Part shown: positions 1 to 49,666 of the stretch, in pieces
Numbering within the stretch: position 1 is the first letter of the stretch
Layout: each line of letters starts with the position of its first letter
DNA from: Minisyncoccia bacterium
GTDB lineage: Bacteria; Patescibacteriota; Minisyncoccia; Phycocordibacterales; UBA9973
Reading direction: 5' to 3'
Assembly (NCBI GenBank): GCA_044229265.1
Contig: JBGATK010000001.1
Coordinates: 35,776 to 99,775 of the forward strand
DNA: 64,000 bases
Position numbers and translations under genes: made by a program
The notes under the pieces: generated by a model
The model's input: only the letters and a program-made list of their open reading frames with translations
Databases searched by the model: none
What the model was told of the DNA's origin: nothing

Positions 1-434
1 GGAAAATTCTTTGGTCGTGGAGGGTAATTTATCAATCGAAAACTGCTAGTTTTCAACCCACCCATAGCTATGATACTGAGATCTACATTCACAGCTTCAC
101 TCATAATCTCAACCATATCAGACACAATTTTCTTGGCAGGAATAAGTAAATTTTTACCAGTCATGACTAGTTCTATGTCTACAAGTGATGACTTTTTTGG
201 TAATTCATATTCAGATGTAATATGAAAAATTTGCTTATAATCCCTTTTTTCAGGGCCATTGTATTCATAGCCACCTAAATAATCATCAAAGGTGTGAATT
301 AACCTATGTCTCATTGGTTGGGCATAGAACATTTGCCAAGACTTTCTGAATCTAGCAAATTGCTCTGCTAGTTTAGGGGGAATTGGGTATTCAAAATACC
401 CGTTTTCTAAGAAATCTTTTACGAATTGATTCAT
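1..434 (-). CDS. Partial ORF (N-terminal ~144 aa; C-terminus lies beyond the window start); possible 2OG-Fe(II) oxygenase-family protein
   Basis: Own translation of the minus strand from ATG (complement of 432-434) to the window edge: MNQFVKDFLENGYF...SSFRLINYPPRPKNF. The ...RLINYPP... segment resembles the conserved strand preceding the HxD motif in 2OG-Fe(II)/IPNS-type oxygenases. Not in the ORF track because it has no stop codon inside the window. Confidence 0.35.
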   Translation of the reverse strand, partial: MNQFVKDFLENGYFEYPIPPKLAEQFARFRKSWQMFYAQPMRHRLIHTFDDYLGGYEYNGPEKRDYKQIFHITSEYELPKKSSLVDIELVMTGKNLLIPAKKIVSDMVEIMSEAVNVDLSIIAMGGLKTSSFRLINYPPRPKNF

Positions 435-516: not shown

Positions 517-549
517 AATAAAAAAAGCCGGACACAATGTTGTGCCGGC
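517..549 (-). terminator. Intrinsic terminator downstream of the 1130-aa gene
   Basis: GC hairpin gccggacacaatgttgtgccggc (527-549) preceded on the plus strand by an A-run, so on the minus strand the hairpin is followed by a T-run. Confidence 0.6.
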
Positions 550-610: not shown

Positions 611-3600
611 CTATAATTTTAATACCTTAGCTTGGTATTTCTTAACATCTGTTATAACAGATATTATGTAAACACCGCTAGGGTATTTCTCTAAACTAAC
701 TTCAAGCTTATCACCATTTTGTACTGGCAATACTCTTGTTTCAATGCCTTCTGAACTAATTATGCTGACTTTAGCATTTTGAGTTCCTTTTGGCAAATCG
801 ATAAACAATACTCCCCCTGTTGGGTTTGGATGCACTGATATCTCAAATTTCATGGCATCAATCAAGATTTGGTTTCTTTGATATTCTATTTCAACATCCT
901 CTTTAGAAGAACGTGAAGAAAGTTTCTCATCGTCTCCAGAGGAATTATTAGCACTACCATCCACGTCTCCTATCTTGATGCCAAAAAAGTCAGCATTCAT
1001 GACATCACCTGGAGGTGTGCCGTAAGTAATACTCAAAAATTCAGGGAAATTCCAAGTCATTGAACCTGAAGGAAAAACAAAACTCTGTGGCACAAAGCGC
1101 CATGAATTATTGTTTTGAAACCTTGGGTTAATTCCTAGAATCAATTTCCTAATCTCGGAAATATCAGAGGCAGTGACTGAACCGCTATGGTTCACATCAG
1201 CAGCTATCATTTGATACGGACTAAGAGTATCTTTCCCTAAAACATATCGTTGTATTTTAACGATATCTCTAGTGCTGACACCAAATAACGGATCATCATC
1301 CTTAAAAGGACTTACCTTGTGGGTCTTAGGTGCTAAAGAATCGAACTTGTAAGATCCCGAGCATATCATGCTCGTAGAGTCTAAAGTCATTTTGACATCT
1401 TCAACAATAGAGCCATTTGGCCTTTGTAGCACACCTGCAACCATCAGTGTATCCTTGAAAGCTGTTGGGCAACGTTTAAAATTGTCTTGTATATGTATTT
1501 TTGTTTTGACAAAAGTATAATTGCCATAACAGTCGAAAGCATACACAGTAATATTTCTCCATCCTAAGGAATCACAAGGATAAAGCATTTCAGTAATAAT
1601 TGTATCTTTAAAGAATGAGAACTTAATATCTTCGTTTTTACAACAATTATCGCTGAAACTCTTGATGAATTTTTCCAGAATTACTTTTGCTCCTAATCCC
1701 ATCGGTGGACAATCTTGTATGTCAGTAGCAAGACCATCTAATAATATGAGGCTAGGTGCTTTTTTGTCGCTAACCGTGATATTCATTGAACAAGTCGATG
1801 TGGTACCACAGCTATCATAAACAGTGAAAACAACTTTATGAACACCATTTGGGTATTTACCACTCGCATTAGCTCCTTTGACGAAAGAATATTTAGAATC
1901 ATTACTGATTTTTAGAATACCCCCACAATCGATTGCTGTTACTGATTCTAAGTTTACTACAACTGAATCATTGCAAGCTCCATAGTTGGCAATACTCGTG
2001 TCTTTTGGACAAAAGGTGATTACTGGTTTTGTGGAATCCATTACCTCAATGATCTGAAGATGAGTCCAATATGGACCTGTTTTCGGATTAAAGTTGCACC
2101 AGTCTATAACTTTCCAAGTTCGTAAAATGCCTTTGCATTTTCCGTTCTTACGAAAATTAAAAACTTCGTCAATGTATGACCATGCTATTTGTTTAGAACA
2201 ACCAACATGATCAAACTTTGGATATAATCCTCTGTCCGGACCATAATTAGCATGACAATCCCAAAATACTGTGTCTCGTGGCCATTTGATATTACTTTCG
2301 TCAAACTTTCGGCCATCGATTATAGTGATAGTCTGACTACAAATAGCTGTATTCCCGTTTGATGCAGTTGCCGTAAAAGTACGAACAACAGTCCCGACAT
2401 TACACATAGTTAGAAAATTTATAAAAGTATCTTTTAAAGATACTCCACAACTACTATATGCAACTGCTTTGCCATATTTTGATAAGTTTAAAATATCAAA
2501 AGTATCACAAGCTACGGTTATGTCGCGAGGGCAAGTTATTCTCGGAATACTTTTGTCTTGAAGAGTTATTGTAGAAAAACATTGAGCGATTTGATTTGTG
2601 TCGCACTTACTTCTTGCTTGTAAACAGACTTGAATAGTTTTACCAACATCATTACAACATAATTCCACATACTTACCTTCTTTACCTGTATCGAGTCTTT
2701 TAACGGTAAGAGTATAACCACAGCAAAGACTAACCATATCAATGAAAAAACTTTCAGCATAAACTCTAGAACAACTGTCTGAATTTAAGCTTGTATTTAT
2801 AGCTTTTTCACAAACGATATTAAAGGAGTTGTCTTCCTTTACATTTACCCAATACGAAGAAATCGTTTGATTACCACATCCATCTGTAATGGTGTAAATT
2901 ACCTCAAATTTTTTGATTTGAACTCTAATACCAGCAATATAGCCACCATTACCACGAATATCTCCGTAGTCTGTGTGTATAAACACACTGGCATTTTTGT
3001 CGCAATCATCAAATTGAATCGCTGGAACAAAATATTCCGCTTCGCAATCTGTATTGTTAACATAAATTGTTACATCTTTGGGCTTGTTTGCCACCAAAGG
3101 TGCGTCAAAGTCTGTGAAGATATACTTTGCTACGTATTTTTCTCCACAACTGGAGTTCCATTCATAGTAAACTATTCTCTCACATCCATTAGTTTCCTCC
3201 CAAACTTTTTTGGCAGGTCCCCATTGGCAGAAATTTCCAAGGGCCGAACAAAGAAATTCTATTTTGAAACCATAGAATTCCCAAATCGGTGGATTACATT
3301 GTTGATCAAAAGGATTACACCATCCATGTATAGGATTTGTACCATATACGAGGATATGAAATCCTTTATTTGCGTCGAAATATTTATTAAAAACAAATTC
3401 GACTAAACCAGAAGAATCTTTAGTAAACTTTACATCCACATTTACAGAATCAATTGCCTTTAGATTCCAATTTGCGTCGTAAAGTTCAGCTACGAGCCAT
3501 TTAGGTGCATTGGGTTTATTCTGGTCAGGTCTAGCCATCATGCTTTTGGTTACCCAGACATAATTAACCCAGAATCTGTTTACAACTGTGCCATGCTTGG

Positions 3601-4003
3601 TGTTACCAGTAATATTTACGGTACTATCCTTATCCTTAAACTGCATTACGCAAGTAGGCTTTGGATTAACTAAATTATTACAGCTGTTCCCAAGCTTGTC
3701 TTCAAGGAAACCTTCAGCACACAAACCATTGAATGGCAAGCCTCCTTGTAAATTCAGAGCCACACATGAAAGATTTTTAATCTCAACCATGTCTGTATCA
3801 ATCTCAGGGTAGGGTAAAGGACCCGGAAAAATCTGAAACATTTTTACTTCATCCTTGCAGGATAACGTAATTGCTGTGTCAGCATTTGGCGGACCTCCGG
3901 CCACCACGGCAGAAGCAGGCGGAGCTTCTGGCTTGTAGGTTAAGAAACAAGCACCCACGCCAAGGAGTGCCAAAAAGCCGTTTCGGAAATTTTTTAAATT
4001 CAT
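611..4003 (-). CDS. Giant cysteine-rich secreted lipoprotein with a dockerin-like segment and a T9SS (Por) C-terminal sorting domain
   Basis: 1130-aa ORF. N-terminus MNLKNFRNGFLALLGVGAC is a signal peptide with a lipobox-like GVGAC. Very many Cys residues. The segment DIVKIQRYVLG...ADVNHSGSVTASDISEIRKLILG resembles a dockerin repeat pair. The C-terminus VHPNPTGGVLFIDLP...KVSIISSEGIETRVL...YPSGVYIISVITDVKKYQAKVLKL matches the T9SS C-terminal-domain pattern (YPNP...I.LP...G.Y...K..K). Confidence 0.7.
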   Translation of the reverse strand: MNLKNFRNGFLALLGVGACFLTYKPEAPPASAVVAGGPPNADTAITLSCKDEVKMFQIFPGPLPYPEIDTDMVEIKNLSCVALNLQGGLPFNGLCAEGFLEDKLGNSCNNLVNPKPTCVMQFKDKDSTVNITGNTKHGTVVNRFWVNYVWVTKSMMARPDQNKPNAPKWLVAELYDANWNLKAIDSVNVDVKFTKDSSGLVEFVFNKYFDANKGFHILVYGTNPIHGWCNPFDQQCNPPIWEFYGFKIEFLCSALGNFCQWGPAKKVWEETNGCERIVYYEWNSSCGEKYVAKYIFTDFDAPLVANKPKDVTIYVNNTDCEAEYFVPAIQFDDCDKNASVFIHTDYGDIRGNGGYIAGIRVQIKKFEVIYTITDGCGNQTISSYWVNVKEDNSFNIVCEKAINTSLNSDSCSRVYAESFFIDMVSLCCGYTLTVKRLDTGKEGKYVELCCNDVGKTIQVCLQARSKCDTNQIAQCFSTITLQDKSIPRITCPRDITVACDTFDILNLSKYGKAVAYSSCGVSLKDTFINFLTMCNVGTVVRTFTATASNGNTAICSQTITIIDGRKFDESNIKWPRDTVFWDCHANYGPDRGLYPKFDHVGCSKQIAWSYIDEVFNFRKNGKCKGILRTWKVIDWCNFNPKTGPYWTHLQIIEVMDSTKPVITFCPKDTSIANYGACNDSVVVNLESVTAIDCGGILKISNDSKYSFVKGANASGKYPNGVHKVVFTVYDSCGTTSTCSMNITVSDKKAPSLILLDGLATDIQDCPPMGLGAKVILEKFIKSFSDNCCKNEDIKFSFFKDTIITEMLYPCDSLGWRNITVYAFDCYGNYTFVKTKIHIQDNFKRCPTAFKDTLMVAGVLQRPNGSIVEDVKMTLDSTSMICSGSYKFDSLAPKTHKVSPFKDDDPLFGVSTRDIVKIQRYVLGKDTLSPYQMIAADVNHSGSVTASDISEIRKLILGINPRFQNNNSWRFVPQSFVFPSGSMTWNFPEFLSITYGTPPGDVMNADFFGIKIGDVDGSANNSSGDDEKLSSRSSKEDVEIEYQRNQILIDAMKFEISVHPNPTGGVLFIDLPKGTQNAKVSIISSEGIETRVLPVQNGDKLEVSLEKYPSGVYIISVITDVKKYQAKVLKL

Positions 4004-4116
4004 AAGATTATGATTTTTAAAAGTTAAAAAATATTTTTCAAAAAAACGAATATGTTCAGGGCTGATATTAAAACATATTTGCCAAAAAGTAAAGGGCTCG
4101 TATTCTAATAACTAAT

Positions 4117-4150
4117 ACAAAAAATACACAGGCAAGACCTGTGTATTTTT
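4117..4150 (-). terminator. Intrinsic terminator after rplK (bidirectional-looking)
   Basis: Hairpin atacacaggcaagacctgtgtat (4124-4146) flanked by an A-run upstream and a T-run downstream. The same acacagg/cctgtgt stem recurs at 27045-27064. Confidence 0.6.
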
Positions 4151-4166: not shown

Positions 4167-4592
4167 TTAGTCTTTTACTTCTATTCCCATACTGCGAGCA
4201 GAGCCAGCTATGATATTTATGAGTCCCTCATCGTCTTTAGCATTTAGATCCACTGCCTTTTTCTTACCAATTTCTAGAGCTTGAGCGCGAGTAATTTTGC
4301 CTACTTTCGAAACTGCATTTTTACCAGAACCTTTTTCTATGCCTGCTGCTTTTAGGATAAGTCCTGAAGCTGGTGAAGTTTTGATATCAAAATCATAAGT
4401 TCTGTCTTCGTATACACGAACTTTTACACCCACCATCTCACCCATCATAGTTTGAGTAGCAGCATTAAACTTAGTAACAAAGTCGCCGATATTAATACCA
4501 GCCTGACCAAGTGCAGGACCAAGTGGTGGAGCTGGAGTTGCCCGGCCACCCATAATTTGAAGTTTTATTTTTTTAGTTATATTCTTTGCCAT
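4167..4592 (-). CDS. rplK: 50S ribosomal protein L11
   Basis: 141 aa; MAKNITKKIKLQIMGGRATPAPPLGPALGQAGINI... is a near-universal L11 sequence. Confidence 0.95.
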   Translation of the reverse strand: MAKNITKKIKLQIMGGRATPAPPLGPALGQAGINIGDFVTKFNAATQTMMGEMVGVKVRVYEDRTYDFDIKTSPASGLILKAAGIEKGSGKNAVSKVGKITRAQALEIGKKKAVDLNAKDDEGLINIIAGSARSMGIEVKD

Positions 4593-11736: not shown

Positions 11737-13485
11737 TTATTCAGTTTCCTGCCAGCTCTCGACACTCCACCCACCCGAAGGCCCAGAAACGAAATTTGCA
11801 TTTATTAGACCCGAATCGAAAGTAATGACAGCATTATTATTTAAACTTATTTTATACCCATTTACCGATGTCGCTCCAGCATTATTGCTAACACTGACTG
11901 TACCATTCGCAGCATAAAGAACCACTGCTCCAGCATTATTACCAAGAGTTATTGCTGAAGTAGATGTAGATGTAGAAAGCGCCATTATATAACTACCTGC
12001 GGTGCCAGAGCCGTGAAAATCCGCATTATTGCCGACAGTTATAGTACCATCAGCTATAACTGCCCCTTCTCCTGATCCATAACCAGAAGATAGTCTTATA
12101 TCGACATTATTACTAAAAGAAATATTCCCTGTCACCCATAAAGTACCGGTAATAGTAAGGTCGCTATTGTTTTGAACAGTCAAATTCCCAACAATTTTTT
12201 TAGGTCCGAGTGAAGTAGTAGTGCTATCTATAGTCATATTACCTGTATATGTACCTCCGGCTAATGCTTCATCTTTCCAATCTAAAATATTTTGGTCAGA
12301 AATAGGCATCGCAATTGCTGCTGGATCAGCAAGTGATGTGTTGCACGATTTGTTATTTCCACTTCCCGTCTGGCAATAATTCGTGCCTGCGATAGTCGAA
12401 TTATTCACTGTATGAGCGTAAGCATTACCTACTCCACCAGAGCCGACAGTAATACCACTTATAAGCCCAGTGAGTCCTCCTAAATATAATTTGAAAAAGC
12501 CATCCAGCCCTCCCGGTGTAGTATTATTCCAAGTGCTACTATATTGACCTATTTTCCCAGTGCCACTACTATAACCATTTGCATTTGCACCTATATAATA
12601 ATATCTAGAAGAATTTGTTCCGCCATCAATAACTATCCAATACGTAGTACCAGCAGTAAGCTGTGGATTTGTGGACATTGGTACTGACACCCAGCCATAA
12701 GTTGTAGATATGAGCGATGCAGAAAGAGTACCAGAAGCCAGTGTAGTGGTGCTAGGTACGCCACTATTATCAGAAACAATTCGCACGGTTAGATTGCTAG
12801 GTGTGCTTACTTTTTTCAAATAAAGTTCAACCTTATTTACTACATCGGTAATGCTCGGCACAAAACTTTGCGCAAAATCTTGGGTACCATTTGCATTACC
12901 AAATTGCACATCATAAGCTGGTGTGCCGGAACCATTTGTCTGATCTGCGGTAAGAGCAGCAGAATTTGCAGATGTTGCAGATCCAGTAATACTACCAGAA
13001 CCTGTAATATTACCATTGGAATAAACACTACCTATAACACTAGAATTATTAGCCATAGTAAGACCGCCTTGACCCGACTGCACTCCATAATTAAAAGAAA
13101 TACCTGTACCTGCCTCTAAAATTATCTCATTTGCTCTATCTCTATTCCCGACATCACCAGCTGATGTAATTGTTTTTTGATTTCCCGCGTCGATAATATT
13201 TGTAGTAGCACTATAGCCATCTATATCTATAGTTTCTGTTGAGCCAATAGTTTTACCTGAATTAATTCTATAATATGCATCTTCGACGCCAGACTCTGAG
13301 AGATAGAACGATTTTTTAGCTTTTAATCCCGTATCAGCGAGCTTGTATTCAGAAACTGTTGGTGAAACCAAGCCCACAATCAAAGAAGCTGACAAAGCTG
13401 TAAAAAAAACTAGTGATACTATGAGAGCTTGACCCTTTTGATATTCATTATTATATTTATTTTTTGAAAAATTTTTTTTAAACAT
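11737..13485 (-). CDS. PilX-like minor or tip type IV pilus component (large G/S/T/N-rich secreted protein)
   Basis: 582 aa; N-terminus ...YQKGQALIVSLVFFTALSASLIVGLVS fits the PilX_N pattern (Q/R-G-x-ALIV...); last gene of the pilin block. Confidence 0.5.
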   Translation of the reverse strand: MFKKNFSKNKYNNEYQKGQALIVSLVFFTALSASLIVGLVSPTVSEYKLADTGLKAKKSFYLSESGVEDAYYRINSGKTIGSTETIDIDGYSATTNIIDAGNQKTITSAGDVGNRDRANEIILEAGTGISFNYGVQSGQGGLTMANNSSVIGSVYSNGNITGSGSITGSATSANSAALTADQTNGSGTPAYDVQFGNANGTQDFAQSFVPSITDVVNKVELYLKKVSTPSNLTVRIVSDNSGVPSTTTLASGTLSASLISTTYGWVSVPMSTNPQLTAGTTYWIVIDGGTNSSRYYYIGANANGYSSGTGKIGQYSSTWNNTTPGGLDGFFKLYLGGLTGLISGITVGSGGVGNAYAHTVNNSTIAGTNYCQTGSGNNKSCNTSLADPAAIAMPISDQNILDWKDEALAGGTYTGNMTIDSTTTSLGPKKIVGNLTVQNNSDLTITGTLWVTGNISFSNNVDIRLSSGYGSGEGAVIADGTITVGNNADFHGSGTAGSYIMALSTSTSTSAITLGNNAGAVVLYAANGTVSVSNNAGATSVNGYKISLNNNAVITFDSGLINANFVSGPSGGWSVESWQETE

Positions 13486-13497
13486 TTTAAATTTAAA

Positions 13498-13995
13498 TTA
13501 ATAACTACCACGTAAAACTACCGTGTCATAAAATGTAGCTGAATTTACACCGCCATAACGAGTAGAAGTAATAGTGAATTCTATTTTTACGGCTACACTA
13601 TTTGCTGTCGTAATTTGAGTAAAAGTAAGCCCGGAGACAGAAAGAGTGCTGGGATTTAAATTACCCACCAAAACATCATCTTCATAGAAAAGTAAATTAC
13701 TGCCTGAAAGTGTAAATTGTGAGCTATCACCAACTAGGGTGCCGTCTTCAATGCGAACTTTTAAATCAGTGCTGCTAATACTCACGATACTACTTGCCTC
13801 ACGAACTTCGCGAGCTATACGCTCCATAATATTTGCGCCTTCAGCTAATTCTATATTTATTTTTGCATTTCTGAAAGATTTAGTCAGAACTATAGTTGAT
13901 TGTATTATCAGCATTGAAAGCATTAAGAAAATAGCGATATAAAAAATCATTTCAAGTAGCGAGAATCCTTTTTTATTTTTTAAAAAATTTTTCAT
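13498..13995 (-). CDS. Prepilin-type pseudopilin (minor pilin)
   Basis: 165 aa; KKGFSLLEMIFYIAIFLMLS is a class III (prepilin peptidase) cleavage and methylation N-terminus. Confidence 0.7.
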   Translation of the reverse strand: MKNFLKNKKGFSLLEMIFYIAIFLMLSMLIIQSTIVLTKSFRNAKINIELAEGANIMERIAREVREASSIVSISSTDLKVRIEDGTLVGDSSQFTLSGSNLLFYEDDVLVGNLNPSTLSVSGLTFTQITTANSVAVKIEFTITSTRYGGVNSATFYDTVVLRGSY

Positions 13996-14002
13996 TTAAA
14001 TT

Positions 14003-14500
14003 TTAAAATAAATCCGTTATGTAAAATTTTATATTTTTCTCCATAACAGTAGTGCCTTCTGTCCAACCCACTGACACTGTTACTAATTTTGTTCCTGTAT
14101 CGAGTACTCCCCCAGAAGAAACTATATCCTGCGTAGACGCATCACGATACACATCAGAAAAAACAATCCTTCGAGTAAAAATACCTATAGTGGAAGGAGT
14201 TTGACTTACACTCCACGTTCCATTTGAAAATGAAGCATAGTAATAACTAAGTGCAGTTGGGCCAGAAATATTAGTCCAATTATTATCACGCAAAATCCGA
14301 ACTATTTCAGCTCCTTCTTCTAAAATTAAACTAGCTTGCATTTGATGAAGTGATCTACGAGAAACTTCTATTCCTTTTTGTGCTACTGCTGATGCAGAAA
14401 TAATAAGCATTACCAAAACAGCAGCGATTACCAAAAGTTCTACCATCATAAAACCTCCTTTATTTTGTTTTTTATTTTTTAAAAAATAAAACATAAACAT
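14003..14500 (-). CDS. Prepilin-type pseudopilin (minor pilin)
   Basis: 165 aa; KGGFMMVELLVIAAVLVMLII has a G|F processing site followed by a hydrophobic helix. Confidence 0.7.
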   Translation of the reverse strand: MFMFYFLKNKKQNKGGFMMVELLVIAAVLVMLIISASAVAQKGIEVSRRSLHQMQASLILEEGAEIVRILRDNNWTNISGPTALSYYYASFSNGTWSVSQTPSTIGIFTRRIVFSDVYRDASTQDIVSSGGVLDTGTKLVTVSVGWTEGTTVMEKNIKFYITDLF

Positions 14501-14961
14501 TAATTCACACTTATGTGGCCAGTTGGACTAATTGTAATTGTTTTTGTGTATGAATCTGCTGACAAAACAATAGTTCCATTTACATTTGGTGCACCATATA
14601 TTCTACTAAAATACACATCGGTAGCTCCGCCCGTTAAAGAAATAGTTGATATACTAGCAGGAGAAGAAATAGTTGTAATAATATTACTCCCTGCTAGAGC
14701 TGAATAAGTAGTCCCTTCAAAAATTATAACTTGATTATTTGCAAAATGCACACCGTACTCTTTGGAATCAAGAGAAGATATAGTATTTGTGCGAGCTTTA
14801 TTTATAGCTGAAAAAACATCAGCTGTAGAATTTTGCAAACTTTGCAGAGTACGGAAACTGCTAAATTTTGGAATTACCACCACAAGTAAAATGCCAATAA
14901 TAGCTACAACTATTAAAACTTCAATTAAATTTATACCCTTATTAAAATTATTTTTTTTCAT
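14500..14961 (-). CDS. Prepilin-type pseudopilin, GspH/FimT-like
   Basis: 153 aa; KGINLIEVLIVVAIIGILLVVVIPKF matches the GspH/FimT N-terminal consensus. Confidence 0.7.
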   Translation of the reverse strand: MKKNNFNKGINLIEVLIVVAIIGILLVVVIPKFSSFRTLQSLQNSTADVFSAINKARTNTISSLDSKEYGVHFANNQVIIFEGTTYSALAGSNIITTISSPASISTISLTGGATDVYFSRIYGAPNVNGTIVLSADSYTKTITISPTGHISVN

Positions 14962-14968
14962 AATTTAA

Positions 14969-16180
14969 TTAACCTATATTATTTAGAACAGAATAAAGTG
15001 GAGTTATCATAGACAATGCAAAAAAACCAACTCCTGTTCCAATTAAAATCATCAAAATTGGCTCAATAATAGTGGAGAGATTTTTAGTTTTATTTTCAAT
15101 TTCATTTTCATAAAAAATAGCAATTTCTGTGAGCATATCAGCTAATTTACCTGTTTCTTCGCCAACTTGAACCATCTCGGTCATCATAATAGGGTAAAGT
15201 TTTGGATTATCTTCAAAAACTTTTGCAAAAGGTGCTCCTTTTTCTACGGATTTTACTGCATCCTCCATGACTTTTTTATAATAAACATTTTGCACAACAT
15301 CACGAGTAATCTCTATGGCCCGTGTTATAGACACACCAGATAAAATAAGTGAAGAAAGAGTGCGCGCTGTCCGAGCAGTATTGAGCTCGCGTGCCATTGT
15401 ACCAAAAACTGGTAATTTTAAAACTACAAAATCTATATATTTTTGACTAGCTTTTGCAGTAAAAAGAAAATATAATCCTACTCCAAATAAAATTGCTCCT
15501 AGTAAAGTAAGTATTAAATTATTTGATATGAAATCACCAAGCCAAAGCACAAAACGTGTAGTTGGAGGTAATTTTACGCCAAGTTCTTTGAAAGTATTAG
15601 CCAGTGTAGGAACCACGAAAGCAAACATTAATATACCTATTATTACCATAGCGGAAATAATTACCCCTGGGTACATCATCGCGCCTTTAATTTTTTTTGT
15701 AAGAGAATTAGATTTTTCTAAATTCATGCCTATCTCAGTAAGAGCTCCAGCTAAATTACCGGACTCTTCCCCAGCACGAACCATGGAAACAAAAAGTGGC
15801 GAAAAAGCTTTTGGTTTTTTAGCGAGCCCACTCGATAATGTTCCGCCATTATTAATTTCATCGATAAGACTAGCAATTATTTTTTTAAAAAACTCTTTTG
15901 GAGTTTGTTTTTCTAAAACCGAAAGAGCTCTACCTGCTGACAAGCCAGCTTTTAACATGCCTGCTAAATTTTTGGTAAATAAAATTAAATCCTGCATTTT
16001 CACCCCACCAAAAATGCCATCAAAAGAAATATTCCAAGAATTCTTTTTTTGTTCTTCAATTAGAATTGGTATTGAACCTTTTTCTCTAAAATCACGGGCC
16101 ACTGCAAAGCGATCCACAGCTTCTGTAGTGCCTTCTATTATATTTCCCTCTTTATTTTTTATTTTATATTTAAAAAGCAT
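14969..16180 (-). CDS. pilC: Type IV pilus assembly platform protein PilC (GspF family)
   Basis: 403 aa; two repeated GspF domains with three transmembrane segments; N-terminus MLFKYKIKNKEGNIIEG... as in PilC. Confidence 0.9.
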   Translation of the reverse strand: MLFKYKIKNKEGNIIEGTTEAVDRFAVARDFREKGSIPILIEEQKKNSWNISFDGIFGGVKMQDLILFTKNLAGMLKAGLSAGRALSVLEKQTPKEFFKKIIASLIDEINNGGTLSSGLAKKPKAFSPLFVSMVRAGEESGNLAGALTEIGMNLEKSNSLTKKIKGAMMYPGVIISAMVIIGILMFAFVVPTLANTFKELGVKLPPTTRFVLWLGDFISNNLILTLLGAILFGVGLYFLFTAKASQKYIDFVVLKLPVFGTMARELNTARTARTLSSLILSGVSITRAIEITRDVVQNVYYKKVMEDAVKSVEKGAPFAKVFEDNPKLYPIMMTEMVQVGEETGKLADMLTEIAIFYENEIENKTKNLSTIIEPILMILIGTGVGFFALSMITPLYSVLNNIG

Positions 16181-16189
16181 TATATAAAT

Positions 16190-17941
16190 TTACTCAGAAA
16201 CCACTCTAAATACTTCTTCTACGCTAGTATTCCCTAGTGCTGCTTGAAAAATACCATCTTCTATCATGGTCATCATTCCTTCTTTTTTTGCTTGAGCTTC
16301 AATATCGTCTTGTGAAGCACCTTTTAAAACTAATTCCTTGATAGCACCTGAAACCTTTAATACTTCATGAATACCTACACGGCTTTTATAGCCATCTTCC
16401 GATTCAGCACTTTTTACTGGCCGATAAAATGCTACTTTATCCCAACTATCATCTTTGCCAATAATATTTTCAGCTTTTAAAAAACCTAACATTCTATCTA
16501 AATCTACAATTTTAGCTAAATTTGCTAATTCGTCTTTATTCATAAAATATTTTTCTTTTGATGAAGTTAAACGTCGTACAAGACGCTGAGCAATAATAGT
16601 TTTCACAGTAGAAATAATCAGAAATGGCAATGCGCCCATATCTATCATACGAGGAACAGCACCAGCAGCTGAATTAGTGTGAATTGTAGAAAGCACTAAG
16701 TGTCCAGTAAGTGAAGCATTAATAGCAAGAGATACAGTTTCCCCATCACGAATTTCCCCTACCATTACGATATCAGGGTCCTGACGAAGAAGTGCACGTA
16801 GTCCTTGTGCAAAAGTTAAACCTATTTCTGGTTTTACTTGTGTTTGATTTACTCTTGGCATTTGATATTCCACTGGGTCTTCTACCGTAGAAATATTTAC
16901 ATCTGGCTTATTTAACATATCGAGCATAGTGTAAAGCGTAGTAGTTTTACCCGAACCGGTAGGGCCAGTAGCTAGTATCATACCTGTTTTTTGTTTCATG
17001 GATTCATAAATTTTCTCTAATCCTTCACCATGAAAACCTAATCCTTCCAACGAGAAACCATGAGAATTTTCTTTTAAAAGACGAATCACAGTTTTTTCAC
17101 CGAAAAATGTAGGTAGTGTAGAAACACGAAAAGAAACTTTTTCACCATTTTGTTCTATTTTAAAACGACCATCTTGTGGGAGTCTTTTTTCATCAAGCTT
17201 TAAATTCGACAATACTTTTATGCGTGCAGTTATGCCTGGTGCTGCACTTTTATCGAGTGTCATGGCATCATGCAAAATACCATCAATACGGTAGCGCACT
17301 ACTAATTTTTCTTCACCTGGTTCTATGTGAATATCAGAAGCATTTTGCAAAATAGCATGAAAAACTAATGAATCCACGATCTTAACTACAGGCAAATCTT
17401 CAGCCATTTCTTTTAATTCTTGCGCTGATTTTTCTCCTCCACCCTCATCGTTCTTTAATTTTAAAGAATTTGATTCTTCTTGAATAATATTTGAAAATTC
17501 TGCTTGTAAACTTTTGCGATATTGCACAAGAGCACTTTTTATAGATGCACTATCTGTGAGGCGTGGTAAAATTTTGAGCCCGGAACGCTTTTTAATAAAA
17601 TCAATAACAGGCAAATCGTCCACGTCGAGCATAGCTACTTCTAATTCTTTTTCTGTTTTTTTATAACCAATAATATTATAATTTCGAGCAATTGGCTCTG
17701 GGATAAGTGAAAGTATAGCTATATCTATTTTTTCTTTTTCCAAAGAAACAAAAGGTATACCTAGAACATGGGCTTCTATTTTGCGAAGCTCTGTTTCTTT
17801 TAATTTATTTTGAATAAGAAGAGTATCAGAAAGGGTTTGCCCTTTTTCACTCGCAATTTTTGCCATATCATTTAAATCCGATTCTGAAATTAATTTACTA
17901 TCAAGTAAAAATTTCTTGAGTTGTTTTTCATCTATCTCCAT
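16190..17941 (-). CDS. pilB: Type IV pilus assembly ATPase PilB (GspE family)
   Basis: 583 aa; GspE_N-like N-terminus, Walker A GPTGSGKTTTLYTML, Asp and His boxes. Confidence 0.9.
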   Translation of the reverse strand: MEIDEKQLKKFLLDSKLISESDLNDMAKIASEKGQTLSDTLLIQNKLKETELRKIEAHVLGIPFVSLEKEKIDIAILSLIPEPIARNYNIIGYKKTEKELEVAMLDVDDLPVIDFIKKRSGLKILPRLTDSASIKSALVQYRKSLQAEFSNIIQEESNSLKLKNDEGGGEKSAQELKEMAEDLPVVKIVDSLVFHAILQNASDIHIEPGEEKLVVRYRIDGILHDAMTLDKSAAPGITARIKVLSNLKLDEKRLPQDGRFKIEQNGEKVSFRVSTLPTFFGEKTVIRLLKENSHGFSLEGLGFHGEGLEKIYESMKQKTGMILATGPTGSGKTTTLYTMLDMLNKPDVNISTVEDPVEYQMPRVNQTQVKPEIGLTFAQGLRALLRQDPDIVMVGEIRDGETVSLAINASLTGHLVLSTIHTNSAAGAVPRMIDMGALPFLIISTVKTIIAQRLVRRLTSSKEKYFMNKDELANLAKIVDLDRMLGFLKAENIIGKDDSWDKVAFYRPVKSAESEDGYKSRVGIHEVLKVSGAIKELVLKGASQDDIEAQAKKEGMMTMIEDGIFQAALGNTSVEEVFRVVSE

Positions 17942-17954
17942 TACTATAATTATA

Positions 17955-17985
17955 ACAAAAAATTCCCCATACAGGGGAATTTTTT
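17955..17985 (-). terminator. Intrinsic terminator between the surface-protein operon and pilB
   Basis: Hairpin attccccatacaggggaat flanked by an A-run and a T-run. On the minus strand a TATAAT lies just downstream, about 7 nt from the pilB ATG. Confidence 0.55.
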
Positions 17986-18002
17986 GTTAATTATTTTTAT
18001 TT

Positions 18003-20309
18003 TTAATATAAAGTTCGCCAAGCATATGTATTTGCAGCATCTTTGGCGCATACTTCTACATTATCTTTTACACCTGTAGCACCCTGTACCACAAAAAACA
18101 TACCCCGAACACTGGCTGTGCATGATGGTTTAGCAGAATTATTATTATTTACGATAACTCCTCCATTAAAAGTATTTTGTGTTATTGCTGTATTACCAAA
18201 AACCATAGAATTACTTGCACTGACTATAGCTCCATTACCAATTGCTGTAGCATTAGTTAAACCACCAGTAGAAACATCCGCACTATAACCAATAGCTGTA
18301 TTGTTTGTTCCAGTAGTATTTGTTAGTAAGGAAAAATAACCAAAAGCTGTGTTATTTGAACCTGTTGTTGCATTTAAAGAACCATTACCAAATGCAGAAT
18401 TATTATTACCAGCAGTATTTAATTGCAAAGCACCTTTTCCAAAAGCACTATTTCTATCGCCATCTAAATTATTTAAAAGAGCTTGATATCCAAAAGCGGA
18501 ATTTTCGAAACCACCTGTATTTACAGCAAGAGCAGTAGAACCCACAGCTGTATTTCTATACCCTACAGTATTGTCTCTAAGAGCCCATTGTCCAAAACCA
18601 GAGTTAGCATCACCTGTAGTATTTGATTGTAAAACTTGATATCCAACAGCAGTATTATTTGCCAATCCAGAATTATTTCCACCGAGAGCATTAATACCTA
18701 CAGCCAAATTTGTTCCTAATTGGTTAGTGCCTTTACCTACAATTACACTACTGATAGATATATTACCCGAAGTATCTACTCTCATTCTCTCAACCCCACT
18801 CGTAGTTATTGCAAAAATATCAGCTCCTGGAGAAAATGTTCCCGTATTTGTATCACCTAAAAATGTCCGAGTTGGAGCACTTGCTGTGCCTAGTGTGGTA
18901 GCTACTGCTCCAGCCACTTCAAACTTTGAAACAAAAGTAGTTCCTACAGGTTGCCCCACACCAACACTTCCATTAACTGGATTTATTACGACATCTCCTT
19001 TCAAAGAACCATTGCTTGTAGAATCTAAAATTAAATCTCCATTTGCAGTAGAATTTCCATTTATTGTAAAACCAGCCATTTGCAATGCTTGTGTAGCTGT
19101 ATGATTTCCTAAATTATCAGCACCGCCACATGTTTGCCATTCAAAAGTTGCACCTGTAGTTTCGTAAGTTAAACAAAATTCATCAGTAGCAGTACCAGAA
19201 ATACTAACCTTTGATACAGTAACAGCGCCATTTAATATTTTTGTATTTGAAACAGCATTAACTGCTATTTTGGGATCATCTACAGCAAGAGCTGCTATTT
19301 TTCCATTGGTTATAGACAAAGCATCGACAGTCCAAACTGTGCCAGTACCAGAAACAGTAATGTCTCCTTTATCACCATCTGTAATACCACCATTAGCTGT
19401 AAAAGTAATATTACTATTATTTACATCATGAGTAATGGTAATTCCTGAACCGGCTATCAAACCTTTATATTCCAAACTAAGACCAGTATCATCTAAACCT
19501 AGAACCTTATTAGCACCTCCAAAAACTGCAGCTATATCAGTTTTAGATACACCATCAACAGCTATTTTGTCGCTAGTTATAGAATCTGCAGCTAATTCTG
19601 TATTACCAACCACTCCTGCATCTATATTCCAAACACTACCACTAGAGGAAACAGTGATGTCGCCTTTGTCGCCATCTGTTAGAGAATTTAACACTTGCCA
19701 AGATCCGTCGCCTCGCAAATAATTTGTAACGCCAGGAGTGCCTGTAATAGCAGATGAAAATAATGGTATTCTATTTGTATTAATTTCTTGCACAGGACCA
19801 GCTGAATTACCTAAATTCGCTAAAAATCTATTAGCTCCAACATTTTGAATTTTTGAATAGGTAACAGCCAAAGGATCTATAGTCCAAGTAGCTCCACTAC
19901 CAGAAACAGTAATGTCGCCTTTATCACCATCGGAAACACCTCCGGAACTAACATCCCAAGTTAAATTACCTGCACCATCAGTTTTTAAATATCCATTTGC
20001 AGTTTGGTTTGCAGGAAAAGTATATGTTTCTGTATTTAGAGTAAGTGTTTTGCCTGGAAAGATAGTTACATTACCTTTTAAATCTGAAGTTCCGTCTACT
20101 ACTAATACTGTACCAGAGCGTAGTCCACTCCATGCTACTATTCCTCCGTCTTTTGCTTGAGTAGTGGAGCTTGTGTTTATTGGGGGTTCGGTGTTGCCAA
20201 GAGGTGGAATACCGGACGGTGGAACCCAAGTAGCAAAAGCTTGTAAGCTTATACTAAAAAGTGATATCGCTAAAAATGATTTAAGAAAAATTTTCTTTTT
20301 TAAAGACAT
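18003..20309 (-). CDS. Large secreted surface protein with internal repeats (DGDKGDITVSGSG..WTID three times); paralogue of the next gene
   Basis: 768 aa; signal peptide ...SLQAFA|TWVPP; the N-terminal ~130 aa are near-identical to the 20348-22021 product; G/N/T/S-rich beta-solenoid-like composition. Confidence 0.7.
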   Translation of the reverse strand: MSLKKKIFLKSFLAISLFSISLQAFATWVPPSGIPPLGNTEPPINTSSTTQAKDGGIVAWSGLRSGTVLVVDGTSDLKGNVTIFPGKTLTLNTETYTFPANQTANGYLKTDGAGNLTWDVSSGGVSDGDKGDITVSGSGATWTIDPLAVTYSKIQNVGANRFLANLGNSAGPVQEINTNRIPLFSSAITGTPGVTNYLRGDGSWQVLNSLTDGDKGDITVSSSGSVWNIDAGVVGNTELAADSITSDKIAVDGVSKTDIAAVFGGANKVLGLDDTGLSLEYKGLIAGSGITITHDVNNSNITFTANGGITDGDKGDITVSGTGTVWTVDALSITNGKIAALAVDDPKIAVNAVSNTKILNGAVTVSKVSISGTATDEFCLTYETTGATFEWQTCGGADNLGNHTATQALQMAGFTINGNSTANGDLILDSTSNGSLKGDVVINPVNGSVGVGQPVGTTFVSKFEVAGAVATTLGTASAPTRTFLGDTNTGTFSPGADIFAITTSGVERMRVDTSGNISISSVIVGKGTNQLGTNLAVGINALGGNNSGLANNTAVGYQVLQSNTTGDANSGFGQWALRDNTVGYRNTAVGSTALAVNTGGFENSAFGYQALLNNLDGDRNSAFGKGALQLNTAGNNNSAFGNGSLNATTGSNNTAFGYFSLLTNTTGTNNTAIGYSADVSTGGLTNATAIGNGAIVSASNSMVFGNTAITQNTFNGGVIVNNNNSAKPSCTASVRGMFFVVQGATGVKDNVEVCAKDAANTYAWRTLY
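19874..20198. repeat. ~325-bp near-identical tract, copy 1 (within the 5' part of the 768-aa gene)
   Basis: Matches 21583-21907 with about 4 mismatches when read directly. The ORF track shows identical 82-aa shadow ORFs in both places. Confidence 0.85.
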
Positions 20310-20347
20310 ATAAATATTATAACAATAAAAAACTACTAACGAAAGAT

Positions 20348-22021
20348 TTATTTTATCTTTGCTTCGAGGATTTCTAAACGCCTACGCAAATCTTCATTTT
20401 CTTTTTTTAGTTCATTAATTTGAGCTTCATGTTTTTGAGTTTCTTTAAGTAGCAATACTGACAACATTGGATATTTAACAGAATCTGGGATTAGTAAATC
20501 TCTTGTGCTACCGGCAATTACATTCTTCTCTGGAATATAGTCCACCAAAGCAGGCACAACTTTATCTACATCTTCGGCTATAAGACCAAAATACCTAAGT
20601 CCATCACTTTTTGAAGTATAAGAAACTGGTTTCAAATCATAAATTTTTGAAGTATCTATTTCTAAATCCGCGACATCTTTTTTATATCTTATAGAAGAAG
20701 TTGAGCGAAGTAATTTACTAGTACCTGTATCATAATACGCATTTGCAGCATTTGCTGTCGTTCCAATACTTCCAAATGAAGGATTGGTTAGTGTTTTCCC
20801 CGATAGAGTTTGAGTGCCTGTTGTATCTACTGGGGTAAAAGTAGTCCACCCTGTACCTGAATTAACTCTACGTAAAGCATCATTATTACCAGGGCATTTC
20901 TCTACAAGAATACCTGTAGTTTCGGCAGCCAACATACAACCTCCGGTGACGCTTGATACTCCAGTACCTCCTTTACCTACAGGTAAAATACCCGCAACCT
21001 CAGTCGTAGCTAGGTCAACTTGAGCTGTAGTTCCACCACCAGTAGCAAATATGTAATTATTAGCAGTTATAACACCAGCACCAGTTGGACCCAACGTACC
21101 TGAGGTCAGTAGTGCTACTGTATTTGTACCTGTTGTAACACTCGCAAATGATACTGACCCTCCACCTCCAGATGTTCCACAAGAAAAAGTATTTGTAGCA
21201 ATAACATAATTTAAATGATTTCCTCCAGAATCAGGACAATTTAAAAGTGCTTTTGCTTCCCAAGCAGAACCATTTGAAACAAGTAGGGTATCGTCAACAG
21301 CACTTGAAAGGCCTGTGCCACCTTTGGCAAAAGGCACGACATTGTTATAAGTAGTAGAGAGTCCGGTAGAAGTAACGTCCCCAGTTAAGTTTCCCATAGT
21401 AGGTGTTCCCCAAGTATTATCGCCTCGCAAAAAAGTAGTAGAATCTTTTGTGCCAGTAGCTGAGAGCTTTGTAGTCGCTACTATAGTAGCATCAGTAATT
21501 TTTATATTAGTTATTGCATTGTCTGCAATTTTTGAATTTCCTACTGCATTGTCTACAATCTTTCCTGTTGTAATAGTAAGTGGGTCTATAGTCCAAGTAG
21601 CTCCACTGCCAGTAACAGTAATGTCGCCTTTATCACCATCAGAAACACCTCCGGAACTAACATCCCAAGTTAAATTTCCTGCACCATCAGTTTTTAAATA
21701 TCCATTTGCAGTTTGGTTTGCAGGAAAAGTATATGTTTCTGTATTTAGAGTAAGTGTTTTGCCTGGAAAGATAGTTACATTACCTTTTAAATCTGAAGTT
21801 CCGTCTACTACTAATACTGTACCAGAGCGTAGTCCACTCCATGCTACTATTCCTCCGTCTTTTGCTTGAGTAGTGGAGCTTGTGTTTATTGGGGGTTCGG
21901 TGTTGCCTCCTGTTGGAGGAGTGCCTATTGGAGGCACCCACACTGCAAATGCTTGCAAAGCTATTGCAAAGGCTGTGAGGACGAAAACAGATTGAAGAAA
22001 AATTTTTGTTTTATAAGTCAT
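20348..22021 (-). CDS. Tail-fibre-like surface protein with a C-terminal intramolecular chaperone auto-processing (peptidase S74-like) domain
   Basis: 557 aa; signal peptide ...LQAFA|VWVPP; C-terminus RSTSSIRYKKDVADLEIDTSKIYDLKPVSYTSKSDGLRYFGLIAEDVDKVVPALV...YPMLSVLLLKETQKHEAQINELKKENEDLRRRLEILE matches the endosialidase/tail-fibre chaperone domain pattern. Confidence 0.7.
   Translation of the reverse strand: MTYKTKIFLQSVFVLTAFAIALQAFAVWVPPIGTPPTGGNTEPPINTSSTTQAKDGGIVAWSGLRSGTVLVVDGTSDLKGNVTIFPGKTLTLNTETYTFPANQTANGYLKTDGAGNLTWDVSSGGVSDGDKGDITVTGSGATWTIDPLTITTGKIVDNAVGNSKIADNAITNIKITDATIVATTKLSATGTKDSTTFLRGDNTWGTPTMGNLTGDVTSTGLSTTYNNVVPFAKGGTGLSSAVDDTLLVSNGSAWEAKALLNCPDSGGNHLNYVIATNTFSCGTSGGGGSVSFASVTTGTNTVALLTSGTLGPTGAGVITANNYIFATGGGTTAQVDLATTEVAGILPVGKGGTGVSSVTGGCMLAAETTGILVEKCPGNNDALRRVNSGTGWTTFTPVDTTGTQTLSGKTLTNPSFGSIGTTANAANAYYDTGTSKLLRSTSSIRYKKDVADLEIDTSKIYDLKPVSYTSKSDGLRYFGLIAEDVDKVVPALVDYIPEKNVIAGSTRDLLIPDSVKYPMLSVLLLKETQKHEAQINELKKENEDLRRRLEILEAKIK
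21583..21907. repeat. ~325-bp near-identical tract, copy 2 (within the 5' part of the 557-aa gene)
   Basis: See copy 1. Confidence 0.85.
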
Positions 22022-22044
22022 AATTTTTTACTAAATAATAATAA

Positions 22045-37260: not shown

Positions 37261-38148
37261 CTATTTGCGAATATTAGAGGAAGATTTTCTTTCTATAATC
37301 TCATCTGCTATACCAGCATAATTACTGATGAGCACAGTTGTGTCGTCGAGATAAACATACATGATAACTATAGAGCCAAGATCATCGTAAAGGACGCGTG
37401 CATTTTTATTTTGAATAATTTCATCTTCAAAATCTCTGGTTAACAATTGCTGAGTATTTGGAGAAATTTCATAATTAAAAATCTGTCCTAAATCATAGAG
37501 CATTTTATTTTCCCAATTACGCATCGTAGTAAAAGCATCATTCATACTTTTTACTTTAAAAACAAAAAATGGGTGATTACCTTTATTACTAAAAACTCCA
37601 TACATAAAATCAGAGCTAAAAATATTCCCTTCTGGTAGAGATATATTTGCCTCAGTAATTTGCAAAAATCTAGCAAGAGAAAGTTGTTTCTTATTTTCGA
37701 CAAGATTAAAAGCTTGAATTTGCCCTTCTGGTAAGACAACTTTTTCTGACTCATCAGCTATGATTTTTAAAGATTTTGTTTTGTTTAAACCTGCAATTTC
37801 GATACTATCCAATTTATCAACTAAAAACATATTTTTTGCATCTTGAACAAATTGATTTTCCCCGCTATTATTTTTTACTGCTATAAAAAAAATAAAATAA
37901 TAAAGAAGTCCTACAGAAAGTATAAGTGCAACAAAACCAAAAATCATATACAGTTGATTTACACTGTAGCCAATTTTCATATGTTCTTTTTCATTCTCTC
38001 TACCTTCTTCAGCATCGATAATAGCGCGAATAGTTCCTGGTGTTCCAGCCTCAGCCTCATGAGCTATGTCATTACTCAAAGTATGCACGCCTTTGCGTGG
38101 CACTTCGAGTGTATCGTTATTTTTATTTTGATTAGAATTAATTTCCAT
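37261..38148 (-). CDS. Membrane-anchored hypothetical protein
   Basis: One transmembrane segment (IFGFVALILSVGLLYYFIFFIAV). The start is trimmed from 38199 to the internal Met at 38148 to limit overlap with pnp; the start is uncertain. Confidence 0.4.
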   Translation of the reverse strand: MEINSNQNKNNDTLEVPRKGVHTLSNDIAHEAEAGTPGTIRAIIDAEEGRENEKEHMKIGYSVNQLYMIFGFVALILSVGLLYYFIFFIAVKNNSGENQFVQDAKNMFLVDKLDSIEIAGLNKTKSLKIIADESEKVVLPEGQIQAFNLVENKKQLSLARFLQITEANISLPEGNIFSSDFMYGVFSNKGNHPFFVFKVKSMNDAFTTMRNWENKMLYDLGQIFNYEISPNTQQLLTRDFEDEIIQNKNARVLYDDLGSIVIMYVYLDDTTVLISNYAGIADEIIERKSSSNIRK

Positions 38149-48633: not shown

Positions 48634-48644
48634 TGGGAAAAATG

Positions 48645-48715: not shown

Positions 48716-48863
48716 ATTTTGTTAATATTTATAAAATAACCTATATATTATATACCTTTTTAGTATAAATGCAAAACTTTAAAAAAAGCTTATAAAATAA
48801 AGCTATTTGTATATATTAAAAATATATTATATAATTTGTTAGTTATTATTTTATTATATTTTC

Positions 48864-49655: not shown

Positions 49656-49666
49656 ATAATTATCTG

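Follow-up and report, generated by a model that had tools for sequence, protein, structure and literature searches.

To our knowledge, the T9SS is restricted to diderm lineages of the FCB group, and CPR (Patescibacteria) cells have no outer membrane. Organisms with a T9SS usually encode many proteins that bear a C-terminal sorting domain (CTD), which PorU cleaves off before the cargo is fixed to A-LPS or set free. GhpA of Saprospiria/Bacteroidota, a heptameric protein of 5898 residues, is outer-membrane-anchored (bioRxiv 10.1101/2024.01.29.577165). Like GhpA and SprB, which are T9SS-secreted and act in cell–cell contact (bioRxiv 10.1101/2024.01.29.577165), the protein described here combines disulfide-containing tandem Ig-like repeats with a terminal T9SS sorting domain. 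Its gene lies in DNA assigned to an ultra-small Parcubacterium (CPR). A literature search found no paper linking T9SS CTDs to CPR/Patescibacteria, and one orthologue of the protein is already annotated as 'T9SS type A sorting domain-containing protein'. We consider it probable that the gene encodes a horizontally acquired, Sec-exported host-attachment adhesin of the Parcubacterium, and that export through a T9SS is no longer the function of its CTD.

The gene, its locus and the host lineage

The window, meaning the whole stretch of 64 kb that was analysed, contains a complete CDS on the minus strand (611..4003) that ends in TAG. The product is a modular surface protein of 1130 amino acids with 45 Cys. 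The ORF is genuine, which confirms the observation made in an earlier note from the sequence. Exact copies of the gene are present in one NCBI assembly (a 155-kb contig) and one Logan assembly. The features of the protein and its flanks are collected in Table 1. The hairpin and T-run downstream of the gene imply that it forms a monocistronic unit. The earlier note also saw in the gene an interruption of the usual rplK-rplA order, and this was not supported; the absence of rplA at the locus is more likely a lineage trait.

Table 1. Features of the gene, its product and the neighbouring region, in window coordinates.
Feature	Residues	Window position	Strand	Remarks
Terminator-like hairpin and T-run 3' of the gene		531..546	-	
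T9SS type-A C-terminal sorting domain	1057-1130 (last 74)	614..835	-	Profiles and fold
Acidic/Ser-rich disordered linker	1018-1056	836..952	-	pLDDT <50 at 1018-1053
Dockerin-like module	906-1017	953..1288	-	Pfam Dockerin_1 at residues 909-956 (window 1136-1279)
Small β-sandwich	851-905	1289..1453	-	AlphaFold strands 853-900; equivalent of the Bacteroidota CarboxypepD_reg-like domain
Stalk of about six Cys-containing HYR-like Ig modules	301-850	1454..3103	-	All-β beads in the AlphaFold model
Recombination breakpoint zone within the gene	~401-505	2487..2803	-	Identity drop against L002
Family-specific β-rich N-terminal head	32-300	3104..3910	-	Orphan domain
N-terminal signal sequence	1-21	3941..4003	-	Direct sequence reading; AlphaFold helix 4-21, then a disordered segment
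Promoter-like site TTGAAA-17-AAAAAT		4013..4041	-	Directly 5' of ATG; consensus match only
Terminator-like hairpin 3' of rplK		4120..4150	-	Sets the gene apart from the secE-nusG-rplK unit
rplK		4167..4592	-	Conserved in every relative as the upstream anchor of the locus; listed for context, outside the protein

Judged by its marker protein and gene content, the source is a Nomurabacteria-like Parcubacterium (CPR/Patescibacteria), not a member of the Bacteroidota. The best named matches of its PNPase (74–82% identity) all belong to Nomurabacteria, Paceibacterota, Minisyncoccia or Patescibacteria. This marker check puts the genome in the Patescibacteria/Parcubacteria and rules out a Bacteroidota origin of the window. 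The window carries pilB/pilC, RNase Y, TIM/PGK and many large orphan proteins, a gene content that is CPR-like. None of the 42 scanned window ORFs matched a T9SS or outer-membrane family. The precomputed Pfam lists of the relatives' flanks contained no T9SS machinery (GldK/L/M/N, SprA/Sov, PorV, PorU, PorZ and others) and no outer-membrane family. In all, the survey took in the 64 kb of the window and some 40 kb from contigs of relatives. Custom HMMs found no other ORF with a CTD, dockerin or head domain in the 64-kb window. A T9SS and an outer membrane are not expected in the CPR lineage from what is known of it, an expectation that was borne out by observation for the scanned window ORFs and the listed flanks of relatives. 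On this expectation, the CTD would be unable to act as an outer-membrane export signal in this Parcubacterium.

Nine or more independent assemblies of CPR (NCBI, ENA and Logan) have the gene at rplK or one gene away. They share a junction in which secE-nusG-rplK is followed by the gene, and CPR genes stand on both flanks. Conservation of this synteny across so many independent assemblies excludes a chimera.

Domain organization of the protein

The protein has a basic n-region and a hydrophobic helix at residues 4–21, which we read, from the sequence and the model, as a Sec signal peptide. At Cys19, the window allele and L002 have LGVGA↓C, which on manual inspection fits a lipobox. The orthologues have clear SPase-I-like signal peptides without Cys19, and the lipobox Cys is missing from P0005, P0006, P0007, L041, P0152, P0153 and L006. 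Neither Lgt nor LspA was seen within the scanned window ORFs. The lipoprotein proposed earlier may hold for the window allele, but is not supported as a trait of the family. In an exhaustive search of representative sequences, the head domain was confined to this protein family; it is possibly CBM-like.

The stalk of the window protein scored 16.1 bits with HYR (PF02494/PF23237), under the 21.7 cut-off. At the aligned position, the orthologues and a copy from Absconditabacterales scored 22.8–37.2 bits, above the cut-off, and HYR_4C was just under its own cut-off in the orthologues. Bacteroidota homologues P0008, P0018 and P0010 match CarboxypepD_reg at the position equivalent to the small β-sandwich.

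The dockerin-like segment, which had been noticed earlier, lies above the Pfam cut-off for Dockerin type I (PF00404; 27.7 versus 22.9 bits). The family profile matches solved dockerins at E values of 1e-6 to 1e-5, and the AlphaFold model has three helices at residues 911–955. By direct reading, the second Ca-binding loop, DVNHSGSVTASD, is canonical and fits DxNxxGxxxxxD. The first loop, DDDPLFGVSTRD, is degenerate and keeps only positions 1, 3 and 12. Against Bacteroidota, the module is the most conserved part of the protein, with 38% identity to P0018. Cohesin is absent from the protein and from the scanned window ORFs. In four scanned Bacteroidota homologues it is present, either between the dockerin and the CTD (P0008, P0018, P0020) or after the repeats (P0009). 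The linker of the CPR protein occupies the place of this cohesin domain, and its identity among orthologues is 12–20%.

The CTD suggested by the earlier note passed the profile check with both PF18962 (27.9 bits; cut-off 27) and TIGR04183 (29.8 bits; cut-off 23), using the curated cut-offs. The model of this domain has seven strands and a pLDDT of 82.6. It is a β-sandwich like the solved CTDs, with 8glk_D, 8qb1, 5ag8 and 8gl6_D among its best fold matches, and the family profile matches 8glj_D/8glk_D at an E value of 1e-4. Six of the seven orthologues scanned carry a CTD above the Pfam cut-off (35.2–49.3 bits), and that of P0004 is partly eroded (24.8 bits). The CTD of the Absconditabacterales copy is shortened and sub-threshold, with no profile match. 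Selection was compared through dN/dS, which gives rough values here, as most comparisons have reached saturation at synonymous sites: the dockerin-like module has the lowest ratio of the protein (0.06–0.16), and the CTD, at 0.36–0.69, is less constrained.

Bacteroidota relatives, probable acquisition and allelic variation

The closest relatives outside the CPR are T9SS cargo proteins of Saprospiraceae/Bacteroidota, with 30–36% identity over residues ~300–1060. In Saprospiraceae the adhesin family occurs in tandem arrays, with several paralogues per genome (e.g. L007–L009). The domain order in Bacteroidota is CarboxypepD_reg, dockerin, cohesin and CTD, and the CPR copies are without the cohesin. 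The CPR copies form one bipartition (99/100 bootstrap replicates in neighbor joining, NJ), and in the midpoint-rooted NJ tree the CPR clade falls among the Bacteroidota paralogues. A putative acquisition of the stalk, dockerin-like module and sorting tail from Saprospiraceae-like Bacteroidota is thus supported; of the two options in the earlier note, an unusual lineage assignment and a domain that was acquired or put to a different use, acquisition is the one that agrees with these results. The proposed direction of transfer is drawn from the midpoint rooting, together with the wealth of paralogues and with where T9SS CTDs are native. The CPR CTDs share only 16–21% identity with those of the nearest Saprospiraceae paralogues, though both are type-A, so the tail may have an origin separate from that of the stalk. 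The GC3 of the gene (0.293) is inside the range of the window, which indicates that transfer into the Parcubacteria lineage was not recent.

A scan of JGI metagenomes returned only Bacteroidota-type relatives, at ≤35% identity, and no further CPR members. No phage relatives were found in IMG/VR, and phage as a vector was set aside on this ground. The CPR and Saprospiraceae copies do not overlap among the visible Logan sample accessions, which is uninformative for co-occurrence. In Foldseek, the full-length model matches GhpA (PDB 9flp) best, and cadherins and contactins score almost equally. Searching the family profile against PDB sequences gave no match to GhpA. Homology to GhpA thus has no support at the sequence level, and the structural likeness is that of generic tandem-Ig proteins.

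Near-identical strains carry mosaic alleles that are hypervariable, with head and stalk diversified by inter-allele recombination. Compared with L002, RplK is 99–100% identical and the upstream flank 96% identical. The nucleotide identity within the gene is 100% over residues 1–350 and 99% over 351–400; it then falls to 85–90% over 401–500 and to 44–72% beyond; the 3' two-thirds do not exceed 72%. RplK is also 99–100% identical in L041, yet the head is only 31% identical. The copy in Absconditabacterales, which use code 25, sits at a different locus. It has no TGA in 1004 codons, whereas the flanking genes have 57 in 2117 codons (Poisson P about 2e-12). The lack of TGA indicates a recent transfer, and the contig illustrates cleanly how a gene has lately entered a recoded genome.

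Proposed role and comparison with known systems

We propose that the product is a disulfide-rich, beads-on-a-string surface protein that would be exported by Sec. From the N-terminus, it would comprise the signal peptide, the head, about six HYR-like Ig modules, the small β-sandwich, the dockerin-like Ca-binding module, the acidic linker and the CTD. Residues ~300 to 1060 probably descend from the T9SS-secreted adhesin family that expanded in tandem arrays in Saprospiraceae. An ancestor of the CPR clade would have gained the gene horizontally, lost the cohesin and gained a new head. The gene would then have been inherited at the rplK locus and also passed on to Absconditabacterales. The CTD would have no role in outer-membrane export and would be retained as a folded terminal module. 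Judging from the architecture, attachment to a partner or host cell is the most likely role.

The same tail might instead be a vestige, in a protein whose role is unrelated to Bacteroidota. The protein could then belong to the generic components of the envelope or S-layer, or it could be a surface antigen that varies or a phage-receptor decoy, and its hypervariability would be driven by phage or predator pressure instead of host attachment. Loci for phage receptors and antigenic variation, too, typically show such pronounced mosaicism of alleles among near-identical strains, and the shortened Absconditabacterales CTD and the partly eroded CTD of P0004 fit such decay. However, most copies keep the CTD fold and motifs, phage relatives were not found in IMG/VR, and an Ig-repeat stalk with a dockerin-like module and a lectin-like head is a classical adhesin architecture. 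We regard this explanation as unlikely. Alternatively, the CTD and/or the cohesin-less dockerin could work towards the partner cell, by mimicry, being captured by PorV/PorU-type T9SS attachment machinery or by cohesins of the host's own paralogues. A CPR epibiont would in that case have obtained the adhesin from its Saprospiraceae host and retained just those parts to which the surface machinery of the host responds. The CTD does stay above the Pfam cut-off in most orthologues despite saturated synonymous divergence, and the dockerin-like module is both the most constrained and the most Bacteroidota-like part. It is specifically the cohesin accompanying the dockerin in the four Bacteroidota relatives that the CPR copies have shed, and the donor family comes from Saprospiraceae, builders of T9SS-dependent surface adhesins such as GhpA. 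T9SS surface components, on the other hand, are not known to accept substrates from outside the cell, and the visible sample accessions provide no host link. The CTD is also less constrained than the rest of the protein, degenerated in the Absconditabacterales copy and strongly unlike the CTDs of the Saprospiraceae paralogues. Such docking is unlikely in our view. If it is true, the gene would mark the identity of the host for a Parcubacteria clade that has not been cultivated, and a T9SS sorting signal would for the first time be in use between species.

A signal peptide joined to a bona fide type-A CTD, in a genome seen in part, is what a conventional T9SS cargo would present, either in a Bacteroidota/FCB organism or in a CPR with a T9SS encoded elsewhere in its genome. 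We hold this to be very improbable: the marker protein and gene content are those of Patescibacteria, the scanned window ORFs yielded no T9SS or outer-membrane family, and a single CTD-bearing ORF in 64 kb contrasts with the many usual in T9SS organisms. The established confinement of the system to diderm FCB-group lineages, and the lack of an outer membrane in CPR, speak against it as well. The contigs of relatives often end within or beside the gene, as they might if a Bacteroidota gene had been wrongly joined to a CPR contig during assembly or binning. The chance of such an artefact is nevertheless minimal, given the recurrent secE-nusG-rplK junction, the CPR genes on both flanks, a GC3 that fits the window and the lack of any Bacteroidota protein above 36% identity.

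We therefore return to the acquired attachment adhesin. For almost all Parcubacteria, the hosts and the mechanisms of attachment are unknown, and a conserved, rapidly diversifying surface protein of foreign derivation offers a concrete, testable lead to the partner and to the molecules that take part. Saprospiraceae-like Bacteroidota are the candidate partner to which it points. For automated annotation it matters that secretion by a T9SS does not follow from a match to a T9SS CTD profile alone.

With cellulosomal type I dockerins (PF00404; e.g. 4uyp_B, 4dh2_B), the protein shares the profile match, the three-helix module and the canonical second loop. It differs from them in the degenerate first loop, in the absence of cohesin from protein and window, and in a context that is not cellulosomal. 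The tail has the fold of the solved T9SS type-A CTDs, those of NucA/RemA in the F. johnsoniae translocon (8glk_D, 8gl6_D), mirolase (8qb1) and RgpB (5ag8). These work with SprA/PorV/PorU in diderms, whereas for the CPR protein such components are not expected and were not seen in the sequence surveyed. Compared with the Saprospiraceae HYR/dockerin/cohesin proteins (e.g. P0010, 'T9SS type A sorting domain-containing protein [Saprospiraceae bacterium]'), it is shorter and single-copy, and has an orphan N-terminal domain and a divergent CTD subtype but no cohesin; unlike them, it belongs to a lineage from which no T9SS is known. Over residues ~300–1060 the two are homologous, and they share the same module order: Cys-containing HYR-like modules, a CarboxypepD_reg-like sandwich, a dockerin-like module and a C-terminal CTD.

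The gene and its domains

The gene downstream of rplK (see the table) is an unbroken open reading frame, and its 1130-residue product contains 45 cysteines (4.0%), 24 of which are invariant. The gene looks monocistronic, since it is bracketed by terminator-like hairpins and has a promoter-like site. The earlier note had described a cysteine-rich lipoprotein with a dockerin-like segment and a T9SS-type C-terminal sorting domain (CTD). Profile searches bore out both domains, the CTD comprising residues 1057–1130. Pfam Por_Secre_tail (PF18962) matches residues 1057–1127 at 27.9 bits against a cut-off of 27, a marginal score in this protein, and NCBIfam TIGR04183 reaches 29.8 bits (cut-off 23). 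The CTD is recovered in the orthologues at 24.8–49.3 bits, over the cut-off in six of seven, and among solved structures of T9SS CTDs the family profile matches 8glj_D and 8glk_D (E 1e-4). Dockerin_1 matches residues 909–956 at 27.7 bits (cut-off 22.9), and solved dockerins are matched by the family profile with E 1e-6 to 1e-5. Modelled at full length (pLDDT 72.8), the protein is a string of beta-sandwich beads with a three-helix dockerin (911–955), a disordered linker (1018–1053) and the CTD. The protein would leave the cell through Sec. The lipoprotein claim may hold for this allele, through lipid anchoring at Cys19, but most alleles carry ordinary cleavable signals.

Features of the window (nucleotide positions)
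Feature	Position	Strand	Remark
Terminator-like hairpin	546–531		other end of the gene
Gene under study	611–4003	−	1130 aa
Promoter-like site	4041–4013
Terminator-like hairpin	4150–4120		after rplK
Type IV pilus block with flanking orphan proteins	11737–23604	−
Large orphan protein	11737–13485	−	choice-of-anchor R domain
Three pilin-sized ORFs	13498–14961	−
pilC	14969–16180	−
pilB	16190–17941	−
Large orphan protein	20348–22021	−	Peptidase_S74
PNPase	38138–40267	−
PI3/PI4-kinase-like protein	44041–44931	+	31 bits
tRNA cluster	48644–49852		Gly-GCC, Arg-TCG, Gly-TCC, Pro-TGG
Fatty-acid desaturase family protein	49945–50730	−
LysM-M23 peptidase	51085–52236
Three large ORFs	52424–59191	+	563, 693, 984 aa

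Host lineage and locus

PNPase has hundreds of relatives at 74–92% identity, and those with names are all Candidatus Nomurabacteria, Paceibacterota, Minisyncoccia or "Patescibacteria group". The gene content is CPR-like (pilB/pilC and pilins, RNase Y, TIM/PGK, Nramp, a LexA-type S24 peptidase, peptidoglycan hydrolases, as well as numerous large proteins that match no family). These results uphold the non-Bacteroidota context that had been suspected. Under table 11 the long ORFs show no breaks, so the window uses the standard genetic code. The earlier note's further claim, that the window holds no T9SS component, agrees with the scan: none of the 42 ORFs covered matched a family of the T9SS or the outer membrane. 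When the window was searched with an HMM of the family's own CTDs, no other ORF with such a domain came up.

Large orphan proteins flank the pilus block; Peptidase_S74, found in one, is an intramolecular-chaperone domain of a kind that occurs in phage tail spikes. The three large successive ORFs have one recognisable domain among them, an Amidase_2 (peptidoglycan amidase) in the 693-aa ORF, and with the LysM-M23 peptidase they may form a cluster attacking cell walls. One would not expect the PI3/PI4-kinase-like protein or the desaturase in a reduced CPR genome. The tRNA cluster lies around a small UPF0102/NucS-like ORF.

The gene had been thought to interrupt the usual rplK-rplA order. This now seems less likely: rplA is absent after rplK in every syntenic relative examined and ribosomal protein L1 has been reported wholly missing from the OD1-L1 part of Parcubacteria (PMC5220378). 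Lineage explains the absence better, whether or not the host belongs to that group.

An assembly artefact was considered and rejected. The exact protein is encoded both by a 155-kb contig from NCBI and by an independent one from Logan, and full-length orthologues (47–72% identity) lie immediately after secE-nusG-rplK in NCBI, ENA and Logan assemblies from different samples; at one locus (L005) the gene is shifted one ATP-grasp gene further from rplK. Both flanks are CPR genes, and the GC3 of 0.293 is within the range of other window genes (0.15–0.32).

Some relatives carry a second gene of about 350 aa a few kb downstream (L041, 14741–15790; L050, 6320–7381; probably L049, 13527–14603). It encodes one stalk module and a dockerin-like module (29% identity to residues 793–1052) without a CTD, and no copy lies within the window. 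In one relative (L049, 1–114) a VKOR-family protein is encoded close by; it may represent a system that forms disulfides outside the cytoplasm, of interest for a protein with so many invariant cysteines.

Allelic mosaicism and probable horizontal transfer

RplK of the relative's locus L002 (GCA_964617005.1) is identical to that of the window, and the upstream DNA is 96% identical. Nucleotide identity within the gene is 100% for residues 1–350, 99% for 351–400, 85–90% for 401–500 and just 44–72% further on. It falls sharply at window position ~2487 (zone 2487–2803, in comparison with L002, L041, L049, L050 and L052). Over its first 1.2 kb the gene is fully identical to that of L002, against only 96% identity in the flanks, a sign of very recent exchange. 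In L041, RplK is 99.3% identical but the head domain shares only 31% identity; L049 has flanks of ~70–75% identity, yet reaches 86% at residues 401–500 and 77–84% at 751–850. These segment-wise patterns show the gene to be a mosaic of swapped segments, and few loci in the clade vary more: single domains differ by up to ~70% between strains with 99–100% identical RplK. Downstream, L002 (13508–15475) and window 1–434 (minus strand) are not conserved despite the 96% identity of the strains. The window lacks the ATP-grasp (Ddl-like) gene found in L002, and the two 2OG-Fe(II) oxygenase-like genes share only 30% identity, so the variable region reaches past the gene and the window edge. Constraint is strongest in the dockerin module (dN/dS 0.06–0.16) and intermediate in the CTD (0.36–0.69); these values are rough, with synonymous sites largely saturated.

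Beyond about ten CPR members, the nearest relatives are Saprospiraceae and other Bacteroidota proteins of 1200–1900 aa, 30–36% identical over residues ~300–1060. Their genomes have several paralogues each, often in tandem (three in L007, five in L009). Saprospiraceae loci (L007, L008, L009 and others) carry three to five paralogues of 1000–1560 aa arranged in tandem, with giants of 4000–5000 aa at some Bacteroidota loci (L025, L028, L029, L036); this expanded adhesin family seems undescribed as such. In a neighbor-joining tree over 573 shared trimmed columns, a single bipartition (99/100 bootstrap) unites the CPR sequences, which, with midpoint rooting assumed, fall among Bacteroidota paralogue clades. 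Bacteroidota are the native home of T9SS CTDs. Paralogue richness, tree placement, native CTDs and the narrow CPR distribution favor transfer from Bacteroidota to CPR, given the assumed root.

A further homologue (1004 aa) lies on a Candidatus Absconditabacterales contig (DAOQQF010000032.1; L006, 3995–7009), at an unrelated locus not adjoining rplK. It shares the orphan head (E 1e-34), stalk and dockerin module, and its CTD-like end is shortened and under profile thresholds. Its neighbors are readable only with code 25 (57 TGA in 2117 codons), whereas not one of the homologue's 1004 codons is TGA, against 27 expected (Poisson P about 2e-12), and its GC is higher. This indicates that a recoded genome recently received the gene by horizontal transfer from a donor using the standard code. 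The sole alternative, a double chimeric junction within one 11.5-kb contig, is unlikely.

Proposed function and known systems

The gene is conserved at a fixed locus in a Parcubacteria clade and diversified by recombination; its product is a modular protein of secreted type, with ancestry among Bacteroidota adhesins and the CTD fold intact. Its variable head and stalk would mediate attachment to a partner cell. CPR envelopes are not known to have an outer membrane, nor is T9SS known outside the FCB group; the window check of this point covered the scanned ORFs. The CTD would thus be unable to serve as an export tag for the outer membrane in a lineage expected to have neither such a membrane nor the machinery. 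The CTD and the cohesin-less dockerin might actively engage a Saprospiraceae-type surface, which we consider improbable, or be merely tolerated. The literature searched contained no paper tying T9SS CTDs to CPR bacteria, and the NCBI pipeline already labels one orthologue "T9SS type A sorting domain-containing protein". The main value of the gene is as a lead to host identity and a caution for annotation.

The protein probably descends from Bacteroidota T9SS cargo adhesins and may work like them. In contrast to theirs, its host is no FCB diderm, and T9SS machinery was not found among the scanned window ORFs. In Foldseek the full-length model matched best to the neck of GhpA, a grappling-hook protein that Aureispira, a member of the Saprospiraceae, secretes by T9SS. 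Cadherins and contactins score almost equally, and the family profile gave no sequence-level match to GhpA; the protein therefore resembles the GhpA class, that of disulfide-stabilized tandem Ig adhesins, without being a member.
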